Made by a program: the position numbers and the translations under genes
DNA from: a virus
Virus record (IMG/VR): IMGVR_UViG_3300019479_000003
Length of the DNA: 64,000 bases
Direction: 5' to 3' (one strand)
Shown: positions 93 to 36,965 of the stretch, one piece after another
Numbering within the stretch: the first letter of the stretch is position 1
Layout: every line of letters starts with the position of its first letter
Notes under the pieces: model-generated
Databases searched by the model: none
Told to the model about the DNA's origin: nothing
The model's input: only the letters and a program-made list of their open reading frames with translations

Positions 93-145
93 TTATTATA
101 TCGTATTACCGCTGAAAAAATCTCAAAAAATTTTTCGAAAATGTA

Positions 146-175
146 TTGACATGTAATTACATGTAATGCTACAAT
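146..175 (+). promoter_or_regulatory. Strong sigmaA promoter with a perfect 16-bp palindromic operator
   Basis: TTGACA(146-151)-18nt-TACAAT(170-175); palindrome ACATGTAATTACATGT at 149-164. Confidence 0.8.
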
Positions 176-219
176 GAAGACGAAGATAAGGGAAGGGAAA
201 AAGGAGGAGGGAAAATGAA

Positions 220-308
220 AAGATGAAAGAGCCGCCCAAACGGACGACTCTTCCCCACTCTAAAATGTTCGGTTTGTTTAATTATAACACAATGAAGGGG
301 AGAGTCAA
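220..308 (-). ncRNA. Putative ~55-nt antisense RNA unit (promoter plus terminator) in the accessory operon leader
   Basis: Minus strand TTGACT(308-303)-16nt-TGtTATAAT(286-281), then hairpin AAGAGTCGTCC-GTTT-GGGCGGCTCTT (252-227) that pairs fully only on the minus strand. Confidence 0.45.
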
Positions 309-740
309 ATGAGCAAAAAGCCAAGACAATTCAGAATCGATGCTGATCTATTAGAAAGATTTGACCGGGTCAATGAAAGGCTATACGTAAATGGAAGCGA
401 AGTCGTTCGCCGCCTAATTAAAGAGTACGTCGAAGAAAAAGAAAAAGAATTAGGATGGGGTGGTAACATGAACAAAAAAGAGCGCGTGAAAAAGGCATTC
501 CTCGAAGTCCACGGCCAGGACTCTGACTGGAGCCTGGCGGCCGATAAGTTTGTATCATGGATTGTATCGAAAGACTTCCAGTCCGAATCCTTCGAGAATT
601 TTGTCGAATGGATTTCGGAGGATCAAATCGAAAATACATGGGATTTCTTCTACGGTTATGGCAGCGATTTTGAAAGATTCGCTGCCGATTGGGTGGCCGA
701 AGAAGAGCGGGAAGAATATCTAGCATTTTGCCGGGAGTGA
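309..740 (+). CDS. Ribbon-helix-helix (CopG/Arc-like) DNA-binding domain fused to an acidic 90-aa domain of unknown function
   Basis: N-terminal PRQFRID strand plus two helices (GSEVVRRLIKEYVE); SD GAAGGGGAGAG; internal ATG at 468 with GGGGTGG SD. Confidence 0.75.
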   Translation: MSKKPRQFRIDADLLERFDRVNERLYVNGSEVVRRLIKEYVEEKEKELGWGGNMNKKERVKKAFLEVHGQDSDWSLAADKFVSWIVSKDFQSESFENFVEWISEDQIENTWDFFYGYGSDFERFAADWVAEEEREEYLAFCRE

Positions 741-796
741 AAACGGCCTCCCCGCAGCCGGAATGCGGGGGAGAATTAAAAAAGGAGGGACTAAAA

Positions 797-1336
797 ATGG
801 CACTACAAAAAATCTTTTTGGCAGATCCGATTCCGGATTGGGAAAGAGTTGGAAACTCGATGTCTACGTTCTACCGTTTTGATGGCTCGACACTCACGAT
901 CCGCTGGAAGGGTCGTGAGAAGTCAATGCCGGCACGGGCCGGCGATGGCATCTACGTCAATTGCCATGGAGGGTTCCCATCCTTTGGCAAGATAAAGATG
1001 CCGAAAAATCGGGGTGAAAAAGTTTTGTGGCTCCTCGGTTTTCCGAAGGAGCTACGAAAACAGACGCCCGAGGGTGTCGAAGCGGAAATAAAAGAGCTAG
1101 AAAATTACGCCGAACGAAACGACATGGAATTTGGAACTCACGTGCGAATATGGGAAACATATTCGCGCGGTAAATTCTTCCTGGTATATCACGAAATTTT
1201 CGAAATCCGGCGAGGATGGCTCGCCGGTTGGGTAAACGATAATATTACGAATGAAGACATCCGTGAACTCTTCAAAAAACACTCGCCAGTTTATCCAGTC
1301 TGGTGGGTAGAAAAATGTCTCTTTGTAAATAAATAA
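797..1336 (+). CDS. Hypothetical protein (179 aa), accessory operon gene 2
   Basis: SD AAAGGAGGGA before ATG at 797; the track start at 689 lacks an RBS. Confidence 0.8.
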   Translation: MALQKIFLADPIPDWERVGNSMSTFYRFDGSTLTIRWKGREKSMPARAGDGIYVNCHGGFPSFGKIKMPKNRGEKVLWLLGFPKELRKQTPEGVEAEIKELENYAERNDMEFGTHVRIWETYSRGKFFLVYHEIFEIRRGWLAGWVNDNITNEDIRELFKKHSPVYPVWWVEKCLFVNK

Positions 1337-1384
1337 GAGGGGACCCCACTCCCCTCTCATCAAAAAGATTAAGGAGGAATTCAT

Positions 1385-1975
1385 ATGATTAATAATATCA
1401 ATTTAGTAGAAAAAATCAATTTTGATGAGATTTGGGATTATTTCGATATTCATTATATGCGTCCAGAAGGTTTAAATAACAAAAAGCCGATAAAGGTGAC
1501 TTTGAAAAATCATCTTCCGCGGCTGTATCCCTACAAAGGGGAAACCTATTTACTCCCAGAATTTGTAGAGGGTTATATCGCCGCCAAGGGATACTTCGAT
1601 AACATGATCGAAGGTATCCCTGGAAGATACGGGCAAACACCTTTGCCCGACGGGGATTACGGCGAACCCGTCTTTATAGACGGGTACGCCAATTCGAATA
1701 ACGGGATGAGAATCGAATTCATCCCTAATAAGGCTGACGATTTAAAAATCTTATTCATCAACGGGAAAATGTTGGCAGCTCCGACAAATGTGATCGAAAA
1801 ATGGGAAATAATAAAATCTTTATTTGAAAGGAGAAAATTCGTAGAAAACGGATACCTAACCTTGAAGAACGGGGATCCCGTTGACTTTAATGATTTCGTG
1901 CGTATTGTTTTGGAAGCTCTTCCTGACAGTTGGGGAATTGACGAGTGGAGAGTTAGGAAATTGTTGGAAGAATAA
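1385..1975 (+). CDS. Hypothetical protein (196 aa), accessory operon gene 3
   Basis: SD AAGGAGGAA, AT-rich open frame. Confidence 0.8.
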   Translation: MINNINLVEKINFDEIWDYFDIHYMRPEGLNNKKPIKVTLKNHLPRLYPYKGETYLLPEFVEGYIAAKGYFDNMIEGIPGRYGQTPLPDGDYGEPVFIDGYANSNNGMRIEFIPNKADDLKILFINGKMLAAPTNVIEKWEIIKSLFERRKFVENGYLTLKNGDPVDFNDFVRIVLEALPDSWGIDEWRVRKLLEE

Positions 1976-2000
1976 GAGGGCCCGCTGCCCTCTCTAAATA

Positions 2001-2031
2001 AAAAAAAGAGGGGATTCGCTCCCCTCTTTTT
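2001..2031. terminator. Bidirectional intrinsic terminator between the accessory operon and endolysin
   Basis: AAAAAAAGAGGGGA-TTCGC-TCCCCTCTTTTT. Confidence 0.85.
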
Positions 2032-2729
2032 CATTGCGTAATAAACGCCGGATACCCTTTTTTCTTCAATTCCTCCACAAGTCTTTCCGCGTTTTCTCTC
2101 TCTTTGAAAGCCCCTACCTGGACACGCCAGAGTTTATCGCCACCTTTTGGCGCAGGCTTCGGCGCGGGTTTCGGTTCTGCTTTTTTCTTCAGCCCGAACA
2201 CCTTCACCAGACCGTTCACATGCCCCTGTGCAATCCGATCAAGCCAAGCATCTTGTTTGAGTTTTGCAGCATCCGCCGAATTGTCGATGAACAGGTTTTC
2301 CGTGAGCATGGCGGCCATTTTGGATTCGCGGACCATGTGGAAATTCGCCTGTTTCTTCCCCCTGTCCCGGACGCCGGCGATCTGTTTCATGATCTCATCA
2401 TGGATGATACCCCGTTTCCGGTCGGTTTCGGCTTTACCGCTGTACGAACCGTTGTAGATGTACGACTCGAACCCGGTCCCACCTCCCGCGTTTATATGAA
2501 CGGAAATGAGGTAGTCTGCGCCCCAGGCATTGGCCATGTCGGTACGCTGTTTGAGAGAAAGGGTTTGGTCGCTTTCGCGGCTGAGTTTGACTTGAACGTT
2601 TTGGTATTGTAGTAGTTTGTCGCGGATTTTCTTGGCAATGTTTAACGTCAAATCTTTTTCTTTCAGACCGTTTGCGCACGCGCCCGGATCCGAGCCGCCA
2701 TGGCCCGCGTCGATGAAAATTTTTACCAT
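2031..2729 (-). CDS. Endolysin: N-acetylmuramoyl-L-alanine amidase (Amidase_3) plus C-terminal SPOR domain, CwlC-like
   Basis: IDAGHGGSDPGA, EKDLTL, SVHINA, LTENLFIDN motifs; WRVQVGAFKERENAERL SPOR motif. Confidence 0.95.
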   Translation of the reverse strand: MVKIFIDAGHGGSDPGACANGLKEKDLTLNIAKKIRDKLLQYQNVQVKLSRESDQTLSLKQRTDMANAWGADYLISVHINAGGGTGFESYIYNGSYSGKAETDRKRGIIHDEIMKQIAGVRDRGKKQANFHMVRESKMAAMLTENLFIDNSADAAKLKQDAWLDRIAQGHVNGLVKVFGLKKKAEPKPAPKPAPKGGDKLWRVQVGAFKERENAERLVEELKKKGYPAFITQ

Positions 2730-2974
2730 TATTCATCATCTCCCTTGGTAATAATCTTGGACTGATCAAAAAGCCCAGCGGCCGATAACCCGATTACCAC
2801 GCCATAAAAGACCTTTTCTTTCAATTCCCCGTCCAGATAAATAATCCCGGCAACTAAACCGAACACCAGGGATACCAGCGGCAAGAATTTCGCCGGTACG
2901 ACAGCAATTCTCTTCACCAGTTCCACCAAAGCCACCACAACCGCGATGATCAGCGCAATATCGAACATTTTCAT
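2729..2974 (-). CDS. Holin with Met-Lys-Met dual start
   Basis: 81 aa, 2-3 hydrophobic segments, GLSAAGLFD motif, charged C-terminus, adjacent to endolysin. Confidence 0.85.
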   Translation of the reverse strand: MKMFDIALIIAVVVALVELVKRIAVVPAKFLPLVSLVFGLVAGIIYLDGELKEKVFYGVVIGLSAAGLFDQSKIITKGDDE

Positions 2975-5862: not shown

Positions 5863-8415
5863 TCACTTGTAGCGTGGTCTGTATTCTACTTCCACAATAG
5901 CTGCATCGGACGGGTTCACAGCAAATTCTGTTGCGCCAGGGCCCAATGGGAAGAAACGTGCTCCGAAGTCCTTAACCGACATAATTGGCTCGCCGTTTCG
6001 GTAGACAACGGCGTTCTTGTGGTCGAATTGAAGTACATCGTCTGGATATGCGATGTACGGGACTTGATTCGTTGCAGGCTTGTAAAGATCATACACAAAA
6101 ACATGGTTGATGCTCATATGGTTAATCGCTCCATAACCGAGATGTGTTCCGATATGCACTTGAATTTGTGCCAACGGCGCTGTGTATTGGTTTTTCGTAT
6201 CAATAAACGTTTTTTCAACGTAGTCAACGTATACACCTGGTTTGTTTGTAGGTCCGGTGCGTCTTGCCGTATATACTTTCCATCGATTCCCCCTACGTTC
6301 AATCGCGAGAGAACCGTAGTAATCATTGAGCGAACCTGTTTTCTTTCCGTATGTGGTAAAAATGGAATCCGTATTTGGACCAAGCTCCCAAAATGCCTTG
6401 ACGTCTTTAGATTTTGCCGAAAAATCGCCGATACTCATTCTAAATACGATATTGTTCGCGGTATCGAGACCGTAAACTTCTATCCGACCAGTCCCGTTCG
6501 CACTCGATTTAATGTCTATGAGCGCATGAACACGAAAATCTTGAAGTTGGTATGGCAACGACTTCTTCAATGCTGGCCCGCCCCATCCGTTGAAAGTCGG
6601 ACCAAAACTCTGCACAACGAACCGATTGCCGTCCGAAACCATCGTTCCTTGGACAATGCCGCCCACAACGCTAGAACCAGCTCCCCATCCGGTTGTCGTT
6701 GTCATTTCATCTATCATAACGGGTTTATCGCCATCCGTTGGCGTCTGTGATACAGTATATGGTTGACCAACACGCATGTAAGCGTCTGGAGCGATGATGT
6801 CCAAAAACGTGATCGGCTGTTTCACGTACGACGTGAATACCGGATATGTTTCCGCTGTGCCTTCGTTGACCACGATATTCGGCGTTTGGACGTTCAAATC
6901 CCCGTCAAACGGCAAATACGCTGTCGTATATTCGTCCACCGTGAAGCCGTTTTGGTATGCTTCCATGATTTCGGCATCCGAACGGGCGATGCGGGAGAGA
7001 CGGAGAGGGCCAATCAACGAATTGAATTGGTATTCACCAACTATTGTCGAACCAATCGCGGCACTAGAAAAACTATCTAGCAACATCGGGTTTGTGTATT
7101 GAGCAACGAGAACGCCGTCCGCATAACAGGTCAGCCTGTTAAATGACCAAGTGGCTGCAACAAAATGCCACCCAGGTGAGAGAGGATTGTTTCCTGTTGC
7201 AATATATGCCGCGCCCTTCTGTATAACGGCTCTTGGTGTCTTTGAGTAAAGCTCGATAAACAGCCTGTTAGCCCGTGTAGAATCACGGGCGTCCAGCACC
7301 ACAATAGCACGATTAAACGATGTGTCTGGCACATATACCCATGCCTCAATCGTCCCCTCTTCTGGATTCAACACCCCATCCGTCGGCAACGTGAGCGTCT
7401 CGGCGGCGCGGGTGCCGTCCACAAAAGAGGTGGCGTAGGGTTTTTGTTCGAGTTGGACATCATCAATTTCAACCCAATCATTTGCATATACATCGCTACG
7501 CGTACTATCGATCGCTATCATGAGACCATAATTCGAAGCTGTTTTACCTGTCGGAATGGTATAAGTAATAGTATATCTTTGCCAAGTTGTGCCAACATTG
7601 ATATTCGGCAATGGTGTATTTCCTACAGTATTAGACATCAAATACATGTACGTAATGGGAAAATTACTCCGAATCGCACGGGCCCTAAAGCTAATTGTGT
7701 ACGTGGCCCCCTCGCTTAATGTCATGTTACGATTGGAAATAATACCGAATTTGGTATTTTCTTTTGTGATTTCAATTCTAACCGCACTACCTATACCGTT
7801 CCAACCCGGTACTAGCGACACTGTACCATCTGTTGGATTCCAAAGTTCAGACCATACCCCGCCTTCAAAACTTGGATTGCTTACAAGATTCACCGTCCCC
7901 TCCTCGATCAGTATCCCGCCCTGTTCAAACCTCGGCTGATTCGCCGCAACTTGCGTGCCGTCGGAAAGGTACGCCACGGAATTCCGGCTGAAAGAGGCAG
8001 GGGGTACGGCGATCGTTTGCGTGCGGAGGGGGCCGTATTTGTATGGGTCAGGGCAGAGGAAGGAGATAACTCCTTCGCCCCACTCCACCAGTTCGTCGAG
8101 GTTCAATTCCCCGGTCACTTGAGCATAATAAACCCGGTCCGGTTCATCTGTGAAAATAAGCTCTTTCGGCTCATCAGTTATGAGCCATGCCGCAAGGTCT
8201 TCCTTGACCTTTTGTAGACTCTCAAAGGTTTTCGTATATATGCGAACCGGGATATTGATTTGTCTGACCTTGATTTTTTTGCCAGAGATTAGTCCACCAG
8301 GGCGTCCAGGTATCTCCAAAATCTCATGTTCGATCGGAGCCCAGGCTGGACGTTCCAAACCGCGGAGAACCCTTACATAGTCCTTGGTGACCCCGTTAAA
8401 TGAAAAAAAGGCCAT
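5863..8415 (-). CDS. Distal tail protein (Dit) enlarged by carbohydrate-binding and LamG/concanavalin-like insertions
   Basis: N-terminal FSFNG..EPDRVYYA..FLCPDPYKY Dit motif; NLVSNPSFE CBM-like segment; EGTIEAW..WHFVAATW..YADG LamG pattern. Confidence 0.85.
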   Translation of the reverse strand: MAFFSFNGVTKDYVRVLRGLERPAWAPIEHEILEIPGRPGGLISGKKIKVRQINIPVRIYTKTFESLQKVKEDLAAWLITDEPKELIFTDEPDRVYYAQVTGELNLDELVEWGEGVISFLCPDPYKYGPLRTQTIAVPPASFSRNSVAYLSDGTQVAANQPRFEQGGILIEEGTVNLVSNPSFEGGVWSELWNPTDGTVSLVPGWNGIGSAVRIEITKENTKFGIISNRNMTLSEGATYTISFRARAIRSNFPITYMYLMSNTVGNTPLPNINVGTTWQRYTITYTIPTGKTASNYGLMIAIDSTRSDVYANDWVEIDDVQLEQKPYATSFVDGTRAAETLTLPTDGVLNPEEGTIEAWVYVPDTSFNRAIVVLDARDSTRANRLFIELYSKTPRAVIQKGAAYIATGNNPLSPGWHFVAATWSFNRLTCYADGVLVAQYTNPMLLDSFSSAAIGSTIVGEYQFNSLIGPLRLSRIARSDAEIMEAYQNGFTVDEYTTAYLPFDGDLNVQTPNIVVNEGTAETYPVFTSYVKQPITFLDIIAPDAYMRVGQPYTVSQTPTDGDKPVMIDEMTTTTGWGAGSSVVGGIVQGTMVSDGNRFVVQSFGPTFNGWGGPALKKSLPYQLQDFRVHALIDIKSSANGTGRIEVYGLDTANNIVFRMSIGDFSAKSKDVKAFWELGPNTDSIFTTYGKKTGSLNDYYGSLAIERRGNRWKVYTARRTGPTNKPGVYVDYVEKTFIDTKNQYTAPLAQIQVHIGTHLGYGAINHMSINHVFVYDLYKPATNQVPYIAYPDDVLQFDHKNAVVYRNGEPIMSVKDFGARFFPLGPGATEFAVNPSDAAIVEVEYRPRYK

Positions 8416-33437: not shown

Positions 33438-33552
33438 TATGAACATCTTGTACTTTTATTATATGTACAAGAATCTTGTATGTCAATAAAAAAGTACAAG
33501 TTTTTTGTATCAATGTTTAAATTTATTCTGGATATTGTACAATATACTTGTA
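33438..33552. promoter_or_regulatory. Genetic switch: consensus leftward promoter plus operators TACAAG-N3-CTTGTA
   Basis: Minus TTGACA(33486-33481)-17-TATAAT(33463-33458); operators at 33438, 33466, 33495 and 33538 (also 33210). Confidence 0.85.
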
Positions 33553-35020: not shown

Positions 35021-35047
35021 AAATGAGCCCTATTGGGCTTTTCTTTT
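35021..35047 (+). terminator. Terminator after the lipoprotein gene
   Basis: AGCCC-TATT-GGGCT-TTTCTTTT. Confidence 0.6.
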
Positions 35048-35092
35048 AATCCAAAAACAGAACATACATTCTATAAAATGGGGGATAAAAAA

Positions 35093-36370
35093 ATGGCAAG
35101 GGGATATTGCCGACAACGAGGAAAAGACAAATGGCAACTGGAGGTGGACCTTGGATACTACATTGATCCGAAAACGGGAAAAAAGAAACGGCATAAGAAA
35201 TACAAAACCATCACGGCTACCGGACAAAGACAAGCAGAACTAGAGCTAGCTCGCTTTGTTGCAGAGGTGACCGGTGGAAGCTATTTTGAACCTGAAAGAG
35301 TAAATTTTGTAGAATTTGTGCAGAATGAATGGATCCCGAAATGTGCGAAAAAGAGGTTGGCCCCGACTACCTATGATCGATATCTCGAATGTGTGAACAA
35401 CCGGATCCTGCCAGCATTTCAATACCTTCGCATGGACCAAATCAAACCAAAACATATTATTGATTTTCTGCATAATCTCGAAGAAGAAGGAATGAGGCTC
35501 GACGGAAAGAAAGGAAAATTGTCTCGATCGCGAATTTACTACCATTATCGGGTCTTAAATAATATATTTAACTTCGCGGTAGAACTCCAGATTCTTCAAG
35601 AAAACCCTGTCAAAAAGATCGAAAAGCCAAAGGTCGAATATAAAGAACCCGAAATTTATACAGATGAAGAGGTTGCTCACCTGCTGGAATGTTTGGAGAA
35701 AGAAACGGATGTTCCGCATTGGCAAATTATCATCAAATTAGCGATCATTACTGGCATGCGCCGTTCGGAACTCTGCGGACTGGAATTTAAACACTTTGAT
35801 TACGAAAAAGGTATCGTCCGCGTCCGACAAGCCCTCACCTATACCAAAACTAACGGATACGAAATCCACGAGATCAGGAAGGGAAACCGGATGGCCAGGC
35901 AAAGAGAGATCCATATCCCACTCTCTCTTGCTGCAGAAGTCGAAAAGCTGTATGCCCAGAGGGAACAGGAACGGTTCGCCATAGGGAAGGAAAAACTTTG
36001 GGAAAAAGGAAAATATAATTTCATCCTGGCACACGAGGATGGAAGACCATATCATCCCCGAACAGTTCAAAGGTGGTGGGAAAGGTTCTTAAAACGTCAT
36101 AATCTAAAATACATTAATATTCATGCTCTTCGGCATACGTCGGCAACATTGCTACTAAACCAGGGCGTTCATGCTAAAATCATATCCGAACGTCTAGGAC
36201 ATTCTAGCACTACAGTCACGATGGGAATTTACGGCCATGCTATCCAAGAGGCTGATAAACTGGCCACAGAAAAACTGGAAAGCGTGATAAATAGATCAAC
36301 AAAAATCAATATGAACCATCAAAACACATCGAATTTCATGATTTTGTCGGCAAAATGTCGGCAAAAATGA
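35093..36370 (+). CDS. int: Tyrosine integrase
   Basis: TGMRRSEL, HALRH, RLGHS, IYGH catalytic motifs; adjacent to attP. Confidence 0.95.
   Translation: MARGYCRQRGKDKWQLEVDLGYYIDPKTGKKKRHKKYKTITATGQRQAELELARFVAEVTGGSYFEPERVNFVEFVQNEWIPKCAKKRLAPTTYDRYLECVNNRILPAFQYLRMDQIKPKHIIDFLHNLEEEGMRLDGKKGKLSRSRIYYHYRVLNNIFNFAVELQILQENPVKKIEKPKVEYKEPEIYTDEEVAHLLECLEKETDVPHWQIIIKLAIITGMRRSELCGLEFKHFDYEKGIVRVRQALTYTKTNGYEIHEIRKGNRMARQREIHIPLSLAAEVEKLYAQREQERFAIGKEKLWEKGKYNFILAHEDGRPYHPRTVQRWWERFLKRHNLKYINIHALRHTSATLLLNQGVHAKIISERLGHSSTTVTMGIYGHAIQEADKLATEKLESVINRSTKINMNHQNTSNFMILSAKCRQK
36345..36366 (+). repeat. Integrase arm-type repeats (2x TGTCGGCAAAA)
   Basis: Tandem 11-mers, also present on the other side of the core. 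Confidence 0.7.
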
Positions 36371-36435: not shown

Positions 36436-36482
36436 TGATTCCGACTGGGCTCGAACCAGCGACCCCCACCCTGTCAAGGTGG
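36436..36482 (-). other. attP: attP core = 3' half of tRNA-Val(GAC)
   Basis: CCACCTTGACAGGGTGG anticodon arm, GCTGGTTCGAGCCCAGT T-arm, CGGAATCA acceptor strand; no D-arm or 5' half. Confidence 0.9.
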
Positions 36483-36584
36483 GGTGGTAGGTGAAATCGG
36501 GAATTAGTTTATTTTAAAATATGTGATTTTACAACATTCTAAAGTCATCATGAACCATAAAAAAATTAAATGAACAAAAAATTT

Positions 36585-36818: not shown

Positions 36819-36965
36819 TTATTCCTCAATCTGCACGTCAATTATATCCTCAAATTTAACCCGCTTCACCCTCCCCACTTCGTCCCTGATCCGGATTTCT
36901 TTTGTGATCGGATCCAGGCGGTGTATGTATCCGCCAATCTCTTCAGTGAACCCTTCCAAGCTCAT
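36819..36965 (-). CDS. Short YolD-like protein (48 aa); its 5' part is also at 1-64
   Basis: Hand-translated MSLEGFTEEIGGYIHRLDPITKEIRIRDEVGRVKRVKFEDIIDVQIEE; SD GGAGGG; SOS box upstream. Confidence 0.6.
   Translation of the reverse strand: MSLEGFTEEIGGYIHRLDPITKEIRIRDEVGRVKRVKFEDIIDVQIEE

Follow-up and report, generated by a model that had tools for sequence, protein, structure and literature searches.

A modular accessory cassette with a putative ribbon-helix-helix autorepressor, located between lysis genes and integration end in a siphophage of thermophilic Bacillaceae, and its possible role in counter-defence

The IMG/VR virus record IMGVR_UViG_3300019479_000003 provides a stretch of 64,000 nt, the window of this study, in which the 36,901-bp circular genome of a temperate siphophage is written about 1.7 times; the coordinates of its open reading frames (ORFs) recur at +36,901 (for ORF1, 309 = 37210). 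We analyzed a three-gene cassette at the beginning of this window, which consists of a promoter overlapped by a perfect palindrome, a gene that codes for a domain of the ribbon-helix-helix (RHH) type (ORF1), two further genes (ORF2 and ORF3) and a terminator common to the convergent endolysin gene. Our findings strongly suggest that this is a self-regulated, modular accessory cassette that sits in a variable region of the phage genome, with the lysis genes on one side and the integration end on the other. The cassette comprises the following features:

108–140: A/T-rich UP-like tract upstream of the cassette promoter
141–165: three ATGTA repeats around the palindrome, starting at 141, 151 and 161, in 10-bp phase
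146–175, plus strand: sigmaA-type cassette promoter (TTGACA at 146–151, 18-nt spacer, TG at 167–168, TACAAT at 170–175)
149–164, no strand: putative RHH operator, the perfect 16-bp palindrome ACATGTAATTACATGT with the core TGTAATTACA, covering the -35 element and the spacer
176–308, plus strand: leader of about 130 nt, near-identical in the related loci L012, L013 and L015
215–226, plus strand: vestigial start MKR* in the leader, with a strong Shine-Dalgarno sequence
225–254: leader hairpin
281–308, minus strand: antisense promoter-like site TTGACT-16-TGtTATAAT (11/12 with TG; a consensus match only)
309–740, plus strand: ORF1, 143 amino acids (aa), an RHH head followed by an acidic C-terminal domain of about 90 aa
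309–458, plus strand: RHH head of ORF1 (aa 1–50; PF01402), the putative autorepressor
468–740, plus strand: domain C of ORF1 (aa 54–143 and stop; isoelectric point (pI) 4.4, 20% aromatic, predicted helical)
797–1336, plus strand: ORF2, 179 aa, soluble
1385–1975, plus strand: ORF3, 196 aa, soluble, acidic (pI 5.0), a near-orphan
744–776, 1337–1358, 1976–1992 and 2002–2032: G+C-rich hairpins 3′ of each cassette gene
2002–2032, no strand: G+C-rich hairpin between A and T runs, the bidirectional terminator shared with the endolysin gene

The cassette promoter matches the sigmaA consensus at 11 of 12 positions and has an extended -10 element. Sites with a score of at least 11/12 occur only three times in the 36.9-kb genome, compared to a mean of 0.64 in random genomes, or 0.02 if the TG is also required. 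A first-pass annotation of this DNA had described a near-consensus sigmaA promoter with a palindrome over its -35 element and spacer, and both are confirmed here (TTGACA-18-TACAAT; 149–164), so that a strong promoter carries an inverted repeat across its -35/-10 region. The palindrome ACATGTAATTACATGT is found once per genome copy, a count that none of 100 shuffled sequences reached. As a palindrome of at least 16 bp arises somewhere in about half of random genomes, its existence alone is not rare, and its weight rests on its position over the -35 element and the spacer and on its conservation. The spacing of the ATGTA repeats corresponds to one helical turn, which suggests a fit to two RHH dimers.

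The product of ORF1 falls into the RHH_1 family (PF01402) with residues 8–43, which score 22.5 bits against the Pfam cut-off of 20.5. This head also matches repressor families in PHROGs and, at an E value of 0.02, CopG regulators in the PDB, and it is 65–98% identical to the heads of the related proteins P0010–P0023. The earlier assignment of an RHH-domain gene is thereby upheld for the head, yet ORF1 does not encode a bare RHH protein but a 143-aa fusion with the acidic domain C. Variants exist from which domain C is deleted, and the left edge of this deletable module (462/463) just precedes an in-frame ATG at 468 (Met54); in most homologues, domain C likewise begins at or within a few residues of a methionine. 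By these edges, domain C looks like a once separate gene that was fused in frame.

Across related loci and proteins, two types of DNA-binding head are attached to four domains (A, B, C and D), which are mutually unrelated and all acidic (pI 4.3–4.6). The RHH head is followed by domain C in P0001 and P0010–12, by domains B and C in P0013, by domain B in P0019–23 and by domain D in P0018. An HTH_59 head is followed by domains A and C in P0014–16, while locus L002 encodes HTH_59 with domain A, and domain B as a separate gene. Domain C further occurs behind an unrelated head in Parageobacillus phage JGon-2020a, and domain B also stands alone (P0009). The heads are thus fused to domains, C and B, that are also found without them. 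A direct kinship of domain C behind the RHH head with domain A behind the HTH_59 head was considered and rejected (BLASTP E value 0.85).

The type of head is paired with the type of operator. In all five RHH loci whose promoter lies on the contig (the window, L012, L015, L008 and L005), the core TGTAATTACA is located at or beside the -35 element TTGACA, and it occurs at only one other place in 155 kb of loci. The four HTH_59 loci (L002, L007, Aeribacillus phage AP45 and Anoxybacillus phage A403) instead carry TTGACT-[TGATACG N4 CGTATCA]-TATAAT, and about 20 bp downstream the repeat is found once more. An A/T-rich upstream tract is common to both types of loci (L008 compared with L002). As judged from this alignment of loci, one promoter scaffold bears either of two operator types, matching the encoded DNA-binding head. 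A co-encoded regulator is thus linked to its repeat across five RHH and four HTH_59 loci; regulator and operator co-vary, and autorepression is therefore supported. This covariation is the best evidence short of the bench for a putative binding of the head to the repeat, and it lends comparative backing to the autoregulation by the RHH protein that the first-pass annotation had proposed (RHH with TGTAATTACA, HTH_59 with TGATACG-N4-CGTATCA).

In AP45 (L009, 1823–1880) and A403 (L010, 3394–3445), the double operator TGATACGAATTCGTATCA lies in and after a consensus promoter. Both are isolated, culturable phages in which the HTH_59 module is annotated merely as hypothetical proteins.

Downstream of the conserved control region, the content of the cassette changes from locus to locus. 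L012 and L015 share the promoter (base for base), the palindrome and the 130-nt leader with the window almost to the base, and their downstream cargo differs. In L012, L013 and L015 the genes behind the combination of RHH head and domain C are different ones, in L002 the pair ORF2 and ORF3 stands behind the HTH_59 module, and in L004 ORF3 stands behind a domain-B protein without ORF2. Domain C is exactly deleted (462 to 736) in a metagenome variant and in L015, and ORF2 is exactly deleted (772 to 1340) in another metagenome variant. The junctions of deletion and replacement variants in metagenomes (743, 772/1340 and 1981) fall at the G+C-rich hairpins, as if these acted as recombination joints between the modules. 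By this distribution, domain C, ORF2 and ORF3 behave as modules independent of one another, each of which is deleted or recombined elsewhere, and small variable cargo stands behind a conserved regulator in mobile elements. The separate occurrence of the modules speaks against two partners that depend on each other, as in a toxin-antitoxin pair, and also against a defence system of several genes in a fixed set. Within the leader, which matched no family in Rfam, the ATG at 215 falls, in the alignment, on the codon with which the first cargo gene of L005 and L008 starts; the MKR* mini-ORF looks less like a regulatory upstream ORF than like the remnant of a first gene that was deleted.

The position of the cassette recurs as well. 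The same slot, convergent on the lysin gene and adjoining the integrase gene, is occupied in L005, L006, AP45 and A403. In A403 the cassette directly follows a recombinase gene, in L007 it follows the integrase gene, and in the IMG/VR phage L008 it lies downstream of the lysin gene and adjoins the integrase gene. Between the RHH-B cassette and the integrase gene of L008, positions 6479–6832 encode a 117-aa Swt1-like HEPN protein (PF18731, E value 3e-8), a candidate for a small RNase or defence gene carried by prophages.

ORF2 and ORF3 had been called unassignable in the first-pass annotation, and this holds: beyond the RHH head, none of the three cassette proteins matched a family in scans of Pfam, PHROGs, PADLOC and NCBIfam, searches of the ESM Atlas gave no usable match for any of them, and none has a predicted transmembrane segment. 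A profile search of 1.84 billion representatives placed ORF2 in a family without a name, with 86 clusters at an E value of at most 1e-3 and 32 at an E value of at most 1e-10. The family shares the N-terminal motif VGNSMST..Y.FDG...WKG...GD...V.C.GG.P, followed by PK...WL.GF.K..R. Scans of 58 ORF2 relatives against Pfam, PHROGs, PADLOC and NCBIfam returned no significant family, and neither isolated phages nor PLSDB plasmids contained a match in a tblastn search with ORF2. With the family alignment as input, AlphaFold2 yielded a confident ORF2 model (predicted local distance difference test (pLDDT) 95.3, predicted template modelling score (pTM) 0.86), in which a beta-rich domain (residues 1–67) is followed by a helical linker and an alpha/beta domain. 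This model has no counterpart among solved structures in the PDB (Foldseek E values > 0.05; the best VIA-align hit, with a Z score of 5.7 over 64 residues, lies under the tool's stated noise level). It found no match in BFVD and the ESM Atlas and only its own family in the AFDB clusters. A resemblance of residues 86–147 to a glyoxalase-type half-domain (Z score 4.5) was dismissed as a common topology. The family searches and, for ORF2, the model-based structure searches that had been proposed as a check gave ORF2 and ORF3 no match to a characterised family.

The genomic surroundings of ORF2 relatives vary. In L001 (2–268 and 2599–4364), a homologue with 53% identity lies among small genes on the same strand, and in L016 a relative is located at a prophage end, adjoining YolD and an HNH_repeat protein (HNH_repeat-like two genes after). 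In L020 (Vallitalea), a relative is part of an SPbeta-like array of small genes. Zinc-ribbon and HNH_repeat proteins are encoded downstream of the ORF2 homologue in L001. For ORF3 only two relatives were found, with 91% and 79% identity; a metagenome scan returned only a contig found before, the PDB gave no match, and the weak match to DUF1801 (E value 0.007) is below the cut-off.

The wider setting is that of a temperate siphophage genome, and the host group is thermophilic Bacillaceae. The relevant neighbours of the cassette are:

35033–36370: tyrosine integrase gene
36436–36498, minus strand: weak transfer RNA (tRNA)-like fragment (15.6 bits, sub-threshold)
36819–36965 (= 1–63 in the first copy), minus strand: truncated YolD-like gene, 48 aa (PF08863, E value 3.5e-7)
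81–92, no strand: Cheo/LexA-like box GAACGTTTGTTC, found by pattern search in the divergent intergenic region just upstream of the truncated yolD
2031–2729, minus strand: endolysin gene (Amidase_3 and SPOR), convergent with the cassette
2729–2974, minus strand: Hol118-like holin gene, next after the endolysin gene

The order in this region is HTH_3 repressor, Peptidase_M78 (ImmA-type), DUF4352 lipoprotein, integrase, tRNA-like fragment, truncated YolD (minus strand), cassette (plus strand), terminator, endolysin (minus strand) and holin (minus strand). The cassette had been placed between the endolysin gene and attP; the endolysin gene is convergent with it and the integrase gene lies nearby, but an attP site near the integrase gene and the tRNA-like fragment is plausible only, given the sub-threshold score of the latter. 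The truncated YolD gene between the tRNA-like fragment and the cassette retains only the C-terminal half of PF08863, of which L015 has a full-length version. The box GAACGTTTGTTC is also conserved in L015 and probably serves the minus-strand truncated yolD rather than the cassette.

The HTH_3 repressor and the Peptidase_M78 protein form an ImmR/ImmA-type switch. A perfect 12/12 promoter at 33486 (minus strand) and the palindrome ATATTGTACAATAT at 33532–33545, the only other perfect palindrome of at least 14 bp in the genome, lie between the cro-like and cI-like genes; this region is probably the immunity switch.

When the cassette DNA was compared to phages, matches were confined to the endolysin end, and the nearest relatives were Caldibacillus and Geobacillus phages. 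Scans of genome contigs with the cassette proteins gave no match and revealed no sequenced host or prophage, and scans of IMG/VR with single cassette proteins gave no match. Pieces of the cassette are contained in compost, manure and bioreactor metagenomes.

From this anatomy we infer DNA binding, repression, their timing and, above all, a function in counter-defence. When phage DNA enters a cell without RHH protein, the host sigmaA RNA polymerase would fire the near-consensus, extended -10 promoter and transcribe the leader and all three ORFs as far as the terminator that the cassette has in common with the endolysin gene. As ORF1 builds up, RHH dimers, probably two on the 10-bp-phased ATGTA repeats, would cover the TGTAATTACA-centred palindrome and shut the promoter. 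Expression would peak early and then, in the lysogen, settle at a low and steady level. Domain C, ORF2 and ORF3 would act as soluble cytoplasmic proteins, most likely as inhibitors of host defences.

The layout can be likened to that of anti-CRISPR (Acr) operons with their Acr-associated (Aca) regulators because a strong promoter with an inverted repeat, an RHH protein encoded in the same operon and small cargo genes that cannot be assigned are found together between the lysis genes and the integration end. Because of its layout, its composition and the shuffling of its modules, a counter-defence role of the cassette, comparable to acr-aca operons or AcrIE10, is plausible, and we put it forward as a tentative interpretation. 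The attachment of the unrelated acidic domains to either RHH or HTH heads has parallels in AcrIF25 and AcrIE10 (PMC13551039, PMC13530269) and in AcrIIA1 (10.1101/787200). A single association with an anti-restriction gene also speaks for it, an ArdC-N fragment 1.4 kb upstream of the ORF2 homologue in L001.

Several observations weigh against this interpretation. The cargo showed no match in sequence or fold to known Acr or anti-defence proteins in Pfam, PHROGs, NCBIfam and the PDB, where no scan of a dedicated Acr library was included. With a pI of 9.0, ORF2 of the window is basic, which typical DNA mimics are not, and its relative in L018, a Clostridia contig, occupies an ordinary chromosomal site. 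The ORF1 model is of low confidence (pLDDT 50), with domain C predicted as helical, and is too poor for a comparison with the AcrIE10 fold. The covariation of regulator and operator is a two-class association and not a graded one, as loci with a near-identical RHH-C head show no variation in the palindrome, and the RHH gene does not come first in L005, L006 and L008. A metatranscriptome contains pieces of domain C and ORF3 and also late genes of relatives, and does not distinguish lysogenic from lytic expression. Finally, Firmicute prophages keep lysogenic-conversion genes beside the lysin gene. Of the anti-CRISPR or anti-defence cassette that the first-pass annotation had envisaged, the acr-aca layout thus stands, but the cargo lends it no known Acr or anti-defence protein, and the term anti-CRISPR is an analogy.

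The main alternative, which we consider unlikely, is that the cassette benefits the host (a so-called moron): a low, homeostatic expression from the prophage would provide superinfection exclusion, a small defence protein or lysogenic conversion. This is supported by the position of the cassette at the prophage end beside the lysis genes, opposite to the late genes and with a promoter and a terminator of its own, and negative autoregulation yields steady expression. The HEPN_Swt1 gene beside the equivalent cassette in L008 and the presence of ORF2 family members in accessory arrays of prophages and, in one case, in a chromosome fit this view as well. On the other hand, none of the three proteins gave a PADLOC match even at an E value of up to 1, and they contain no enzymatic or nucleotide-binding motif and, unlike most exclusion proteins, no transmembrane segment. 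Moreover, small and mostly acidic proteins are shuffled singly here, whereas defence systems usually travel as fixed multi-gene sets, and a moron with a housekeeping function would not need a promoter as strong as this near-consensus one with its extended -10 element.

Another possibility is offered by the immI region of phage P22, in which the RHH gene arc comes first behind the strong promoter Pant, Arc binds its operator, and the antisense RNA sar is made. By analogy, an Arc-like RHH protein would autoregulate a promoter driving an antirepressor or a protein directed against resident or competing prophages, with an antisense promoter as second control. The cassette resembles immI in that its RHH gene is first behind a strong promoter and in that a facing antisense promoter is possible: the site running from 308 to 281 overlaps the start of ORF1 and faces the cassette promoter 130 bp away, both being among the three sites of at least 11/12 in the genome, and it may add antisense control or transcriptional interference. 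However, the -35 element of this site is degraded (TTTACT) in L012 and L015. Unlike in P22, there is no antirepressor homologue among the cassette proteins, which lack ANT, KilAC and Bro domains, and the ImmR/ImmA-type switch of this phage needs no antirepressor. As the cargo also differs between phages, whereas one function would be conserved, we regard this explanation as improbable.

An addiction or abortive-infection module of the toxin-antitoxin or omega-epsilon-zeta type, with ORF1 as antitoxin and regulator whose C-terminal domain neutralises ORF2 or ORF3 as toxin, is very improbable: the RHH-first, effector-next order in a compact operon, the C-terminal extension of the head and the putative operator autorepression are classic for type II systems, the omega regulator is itself an RHH protein, and the head shows weak similarity to RelB/DinJ and VapB antitoxins in NCBIfam (E values 0.03–0.2), but neither ORF2 nor ORF3 has a sequence match among toxin families, nothing among solved structures corresponds to the confident ORF2 model, and the supposed partners are inherited separately, being unlinked in L012, L013, L002 and L004 and lost singly, as domain C alone or ORF2 alone, in variants. 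Defence or toxin-antitoxin had been the alternative reading of the first-pass annotation; it is weakened by the lack of PADLOC and toxin matches and by the independence of the coding modules. What probability remains goes to functions not yet imagined.

If the cassette does serve counter-defence, domain C, ORF2 and/or ORF3 might be new thermostable proteins that inhibit CRISPR types I-B, II-C or III, restriction or other defences in thermophilic Bacillaceae, with the fusion of RHH head and domain C as a target-sensing switch; this more specific proposal is rather doubtful, if conceivable. In such a switch, binding of a host target to domain C would loosen the dimer of dimers of the repressor and reopen the promoter, as in AcrIE10. 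Our literature search turned up no account of an anti-defence protein from a Geobacillus, Parageobacillus, Anoxybacillus or Aeribacillus phage, and Geobacillus appeared mainly as the source of a Cas9 for testing inhibitors. Heat-stable inhibitors would be useful tools, and the promoter-operator-regulator heads of the RHH and HTH_59 types would serve as anchors for mining the anti-defence repertoire of phages from compost and hot environments. The two anchors, RHH with TGTAATTACA and HTH_59 with TGATACG-N4-CGTATCA, permit guilt-by-association mining, the second of them in the culturable phages AP45 and A403. Candidates include the four acidic domains, the ORF2 family with its 86 clusters, and ORF3. 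Should the cargo protect the lysogen instead, these anchors would point to a new group of small functions encoded by prophages.

The kind of operon described here, self-repressed and with a regulator-effector fusion, is known; the present member of it has an RHH family that is new, a sister family with HTH_59 and cargo without an assigned family. The first-pass annotation had cited Aca10 as an RHH protein, which is wrong according to PMC9410906, where the ten Aca families (Aca1–10) are described as helix-turn-helix (HTH) proteins. Published RHH cases are Aca14 (PMC13551039), AcrIE10 (PMC13530269) and AcrIF25 (cited in PMC13551039). Aca14 binds an inverted repeat over the promoters of anti-defence operons (PMC13551039). 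Unlike ORF1, it is a stand-alone protein, is usually encoded last in the operon and is found in Proteobacteria; the RHH family of the cassette appears to be a distinct one. AcrIF25 has an RHH head that is swapped for an HTH head in a homologue (cited in PMC13551039), and domain C is similarly found behind either RHH (P0001) or HTH_59 (P0014–16).

Because ORF1 is an RHH-domain fusion and not a bare RHH protein, AcrIIA1 and AcrIE10 are the closest analogues. AcrIIA1 of temperate Listeria phages is an HTH autorepressor fused to an anti-Cas9 domain, and its N-terminal domain autorepresses the acr promoter via a palindrome (10.1101/787200). The cassette resembles the AcrIIA1 locus in that a putative repressor-effector fusion comes first behind a promoter palindrome and is followed by variable cargo in a temperate Firmicute siphophage, and the Hol118-like holin is a further likeness to the Listeria AcrIIA1 phages. 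It differs in that the head is RHH (HTH_59 in the sister loci) and in that the cargo has no homology to AcrIIA proteins in Pfam or PHROGs. AcrIE10 of Klebsiella plasmids is a bifunctional protein of an RHH Aca domain and an Acr domain, which binds an inverted repeat over the -35 and -10 elements as a dimer of dimers (PMC13530269). ORF1 has no detectable sequence similarity to AcrIE10, and its fusion is the first gene of a cassette in a Bacillaceae phage. Like AcrIE10, it combines an N-terminal RHH head with a small, predicted all-helical C-terminal domain, and the inverted repeat overlaps its own strong promoter, where a dimer of dimers would fit the 10-bp-phased repeats.

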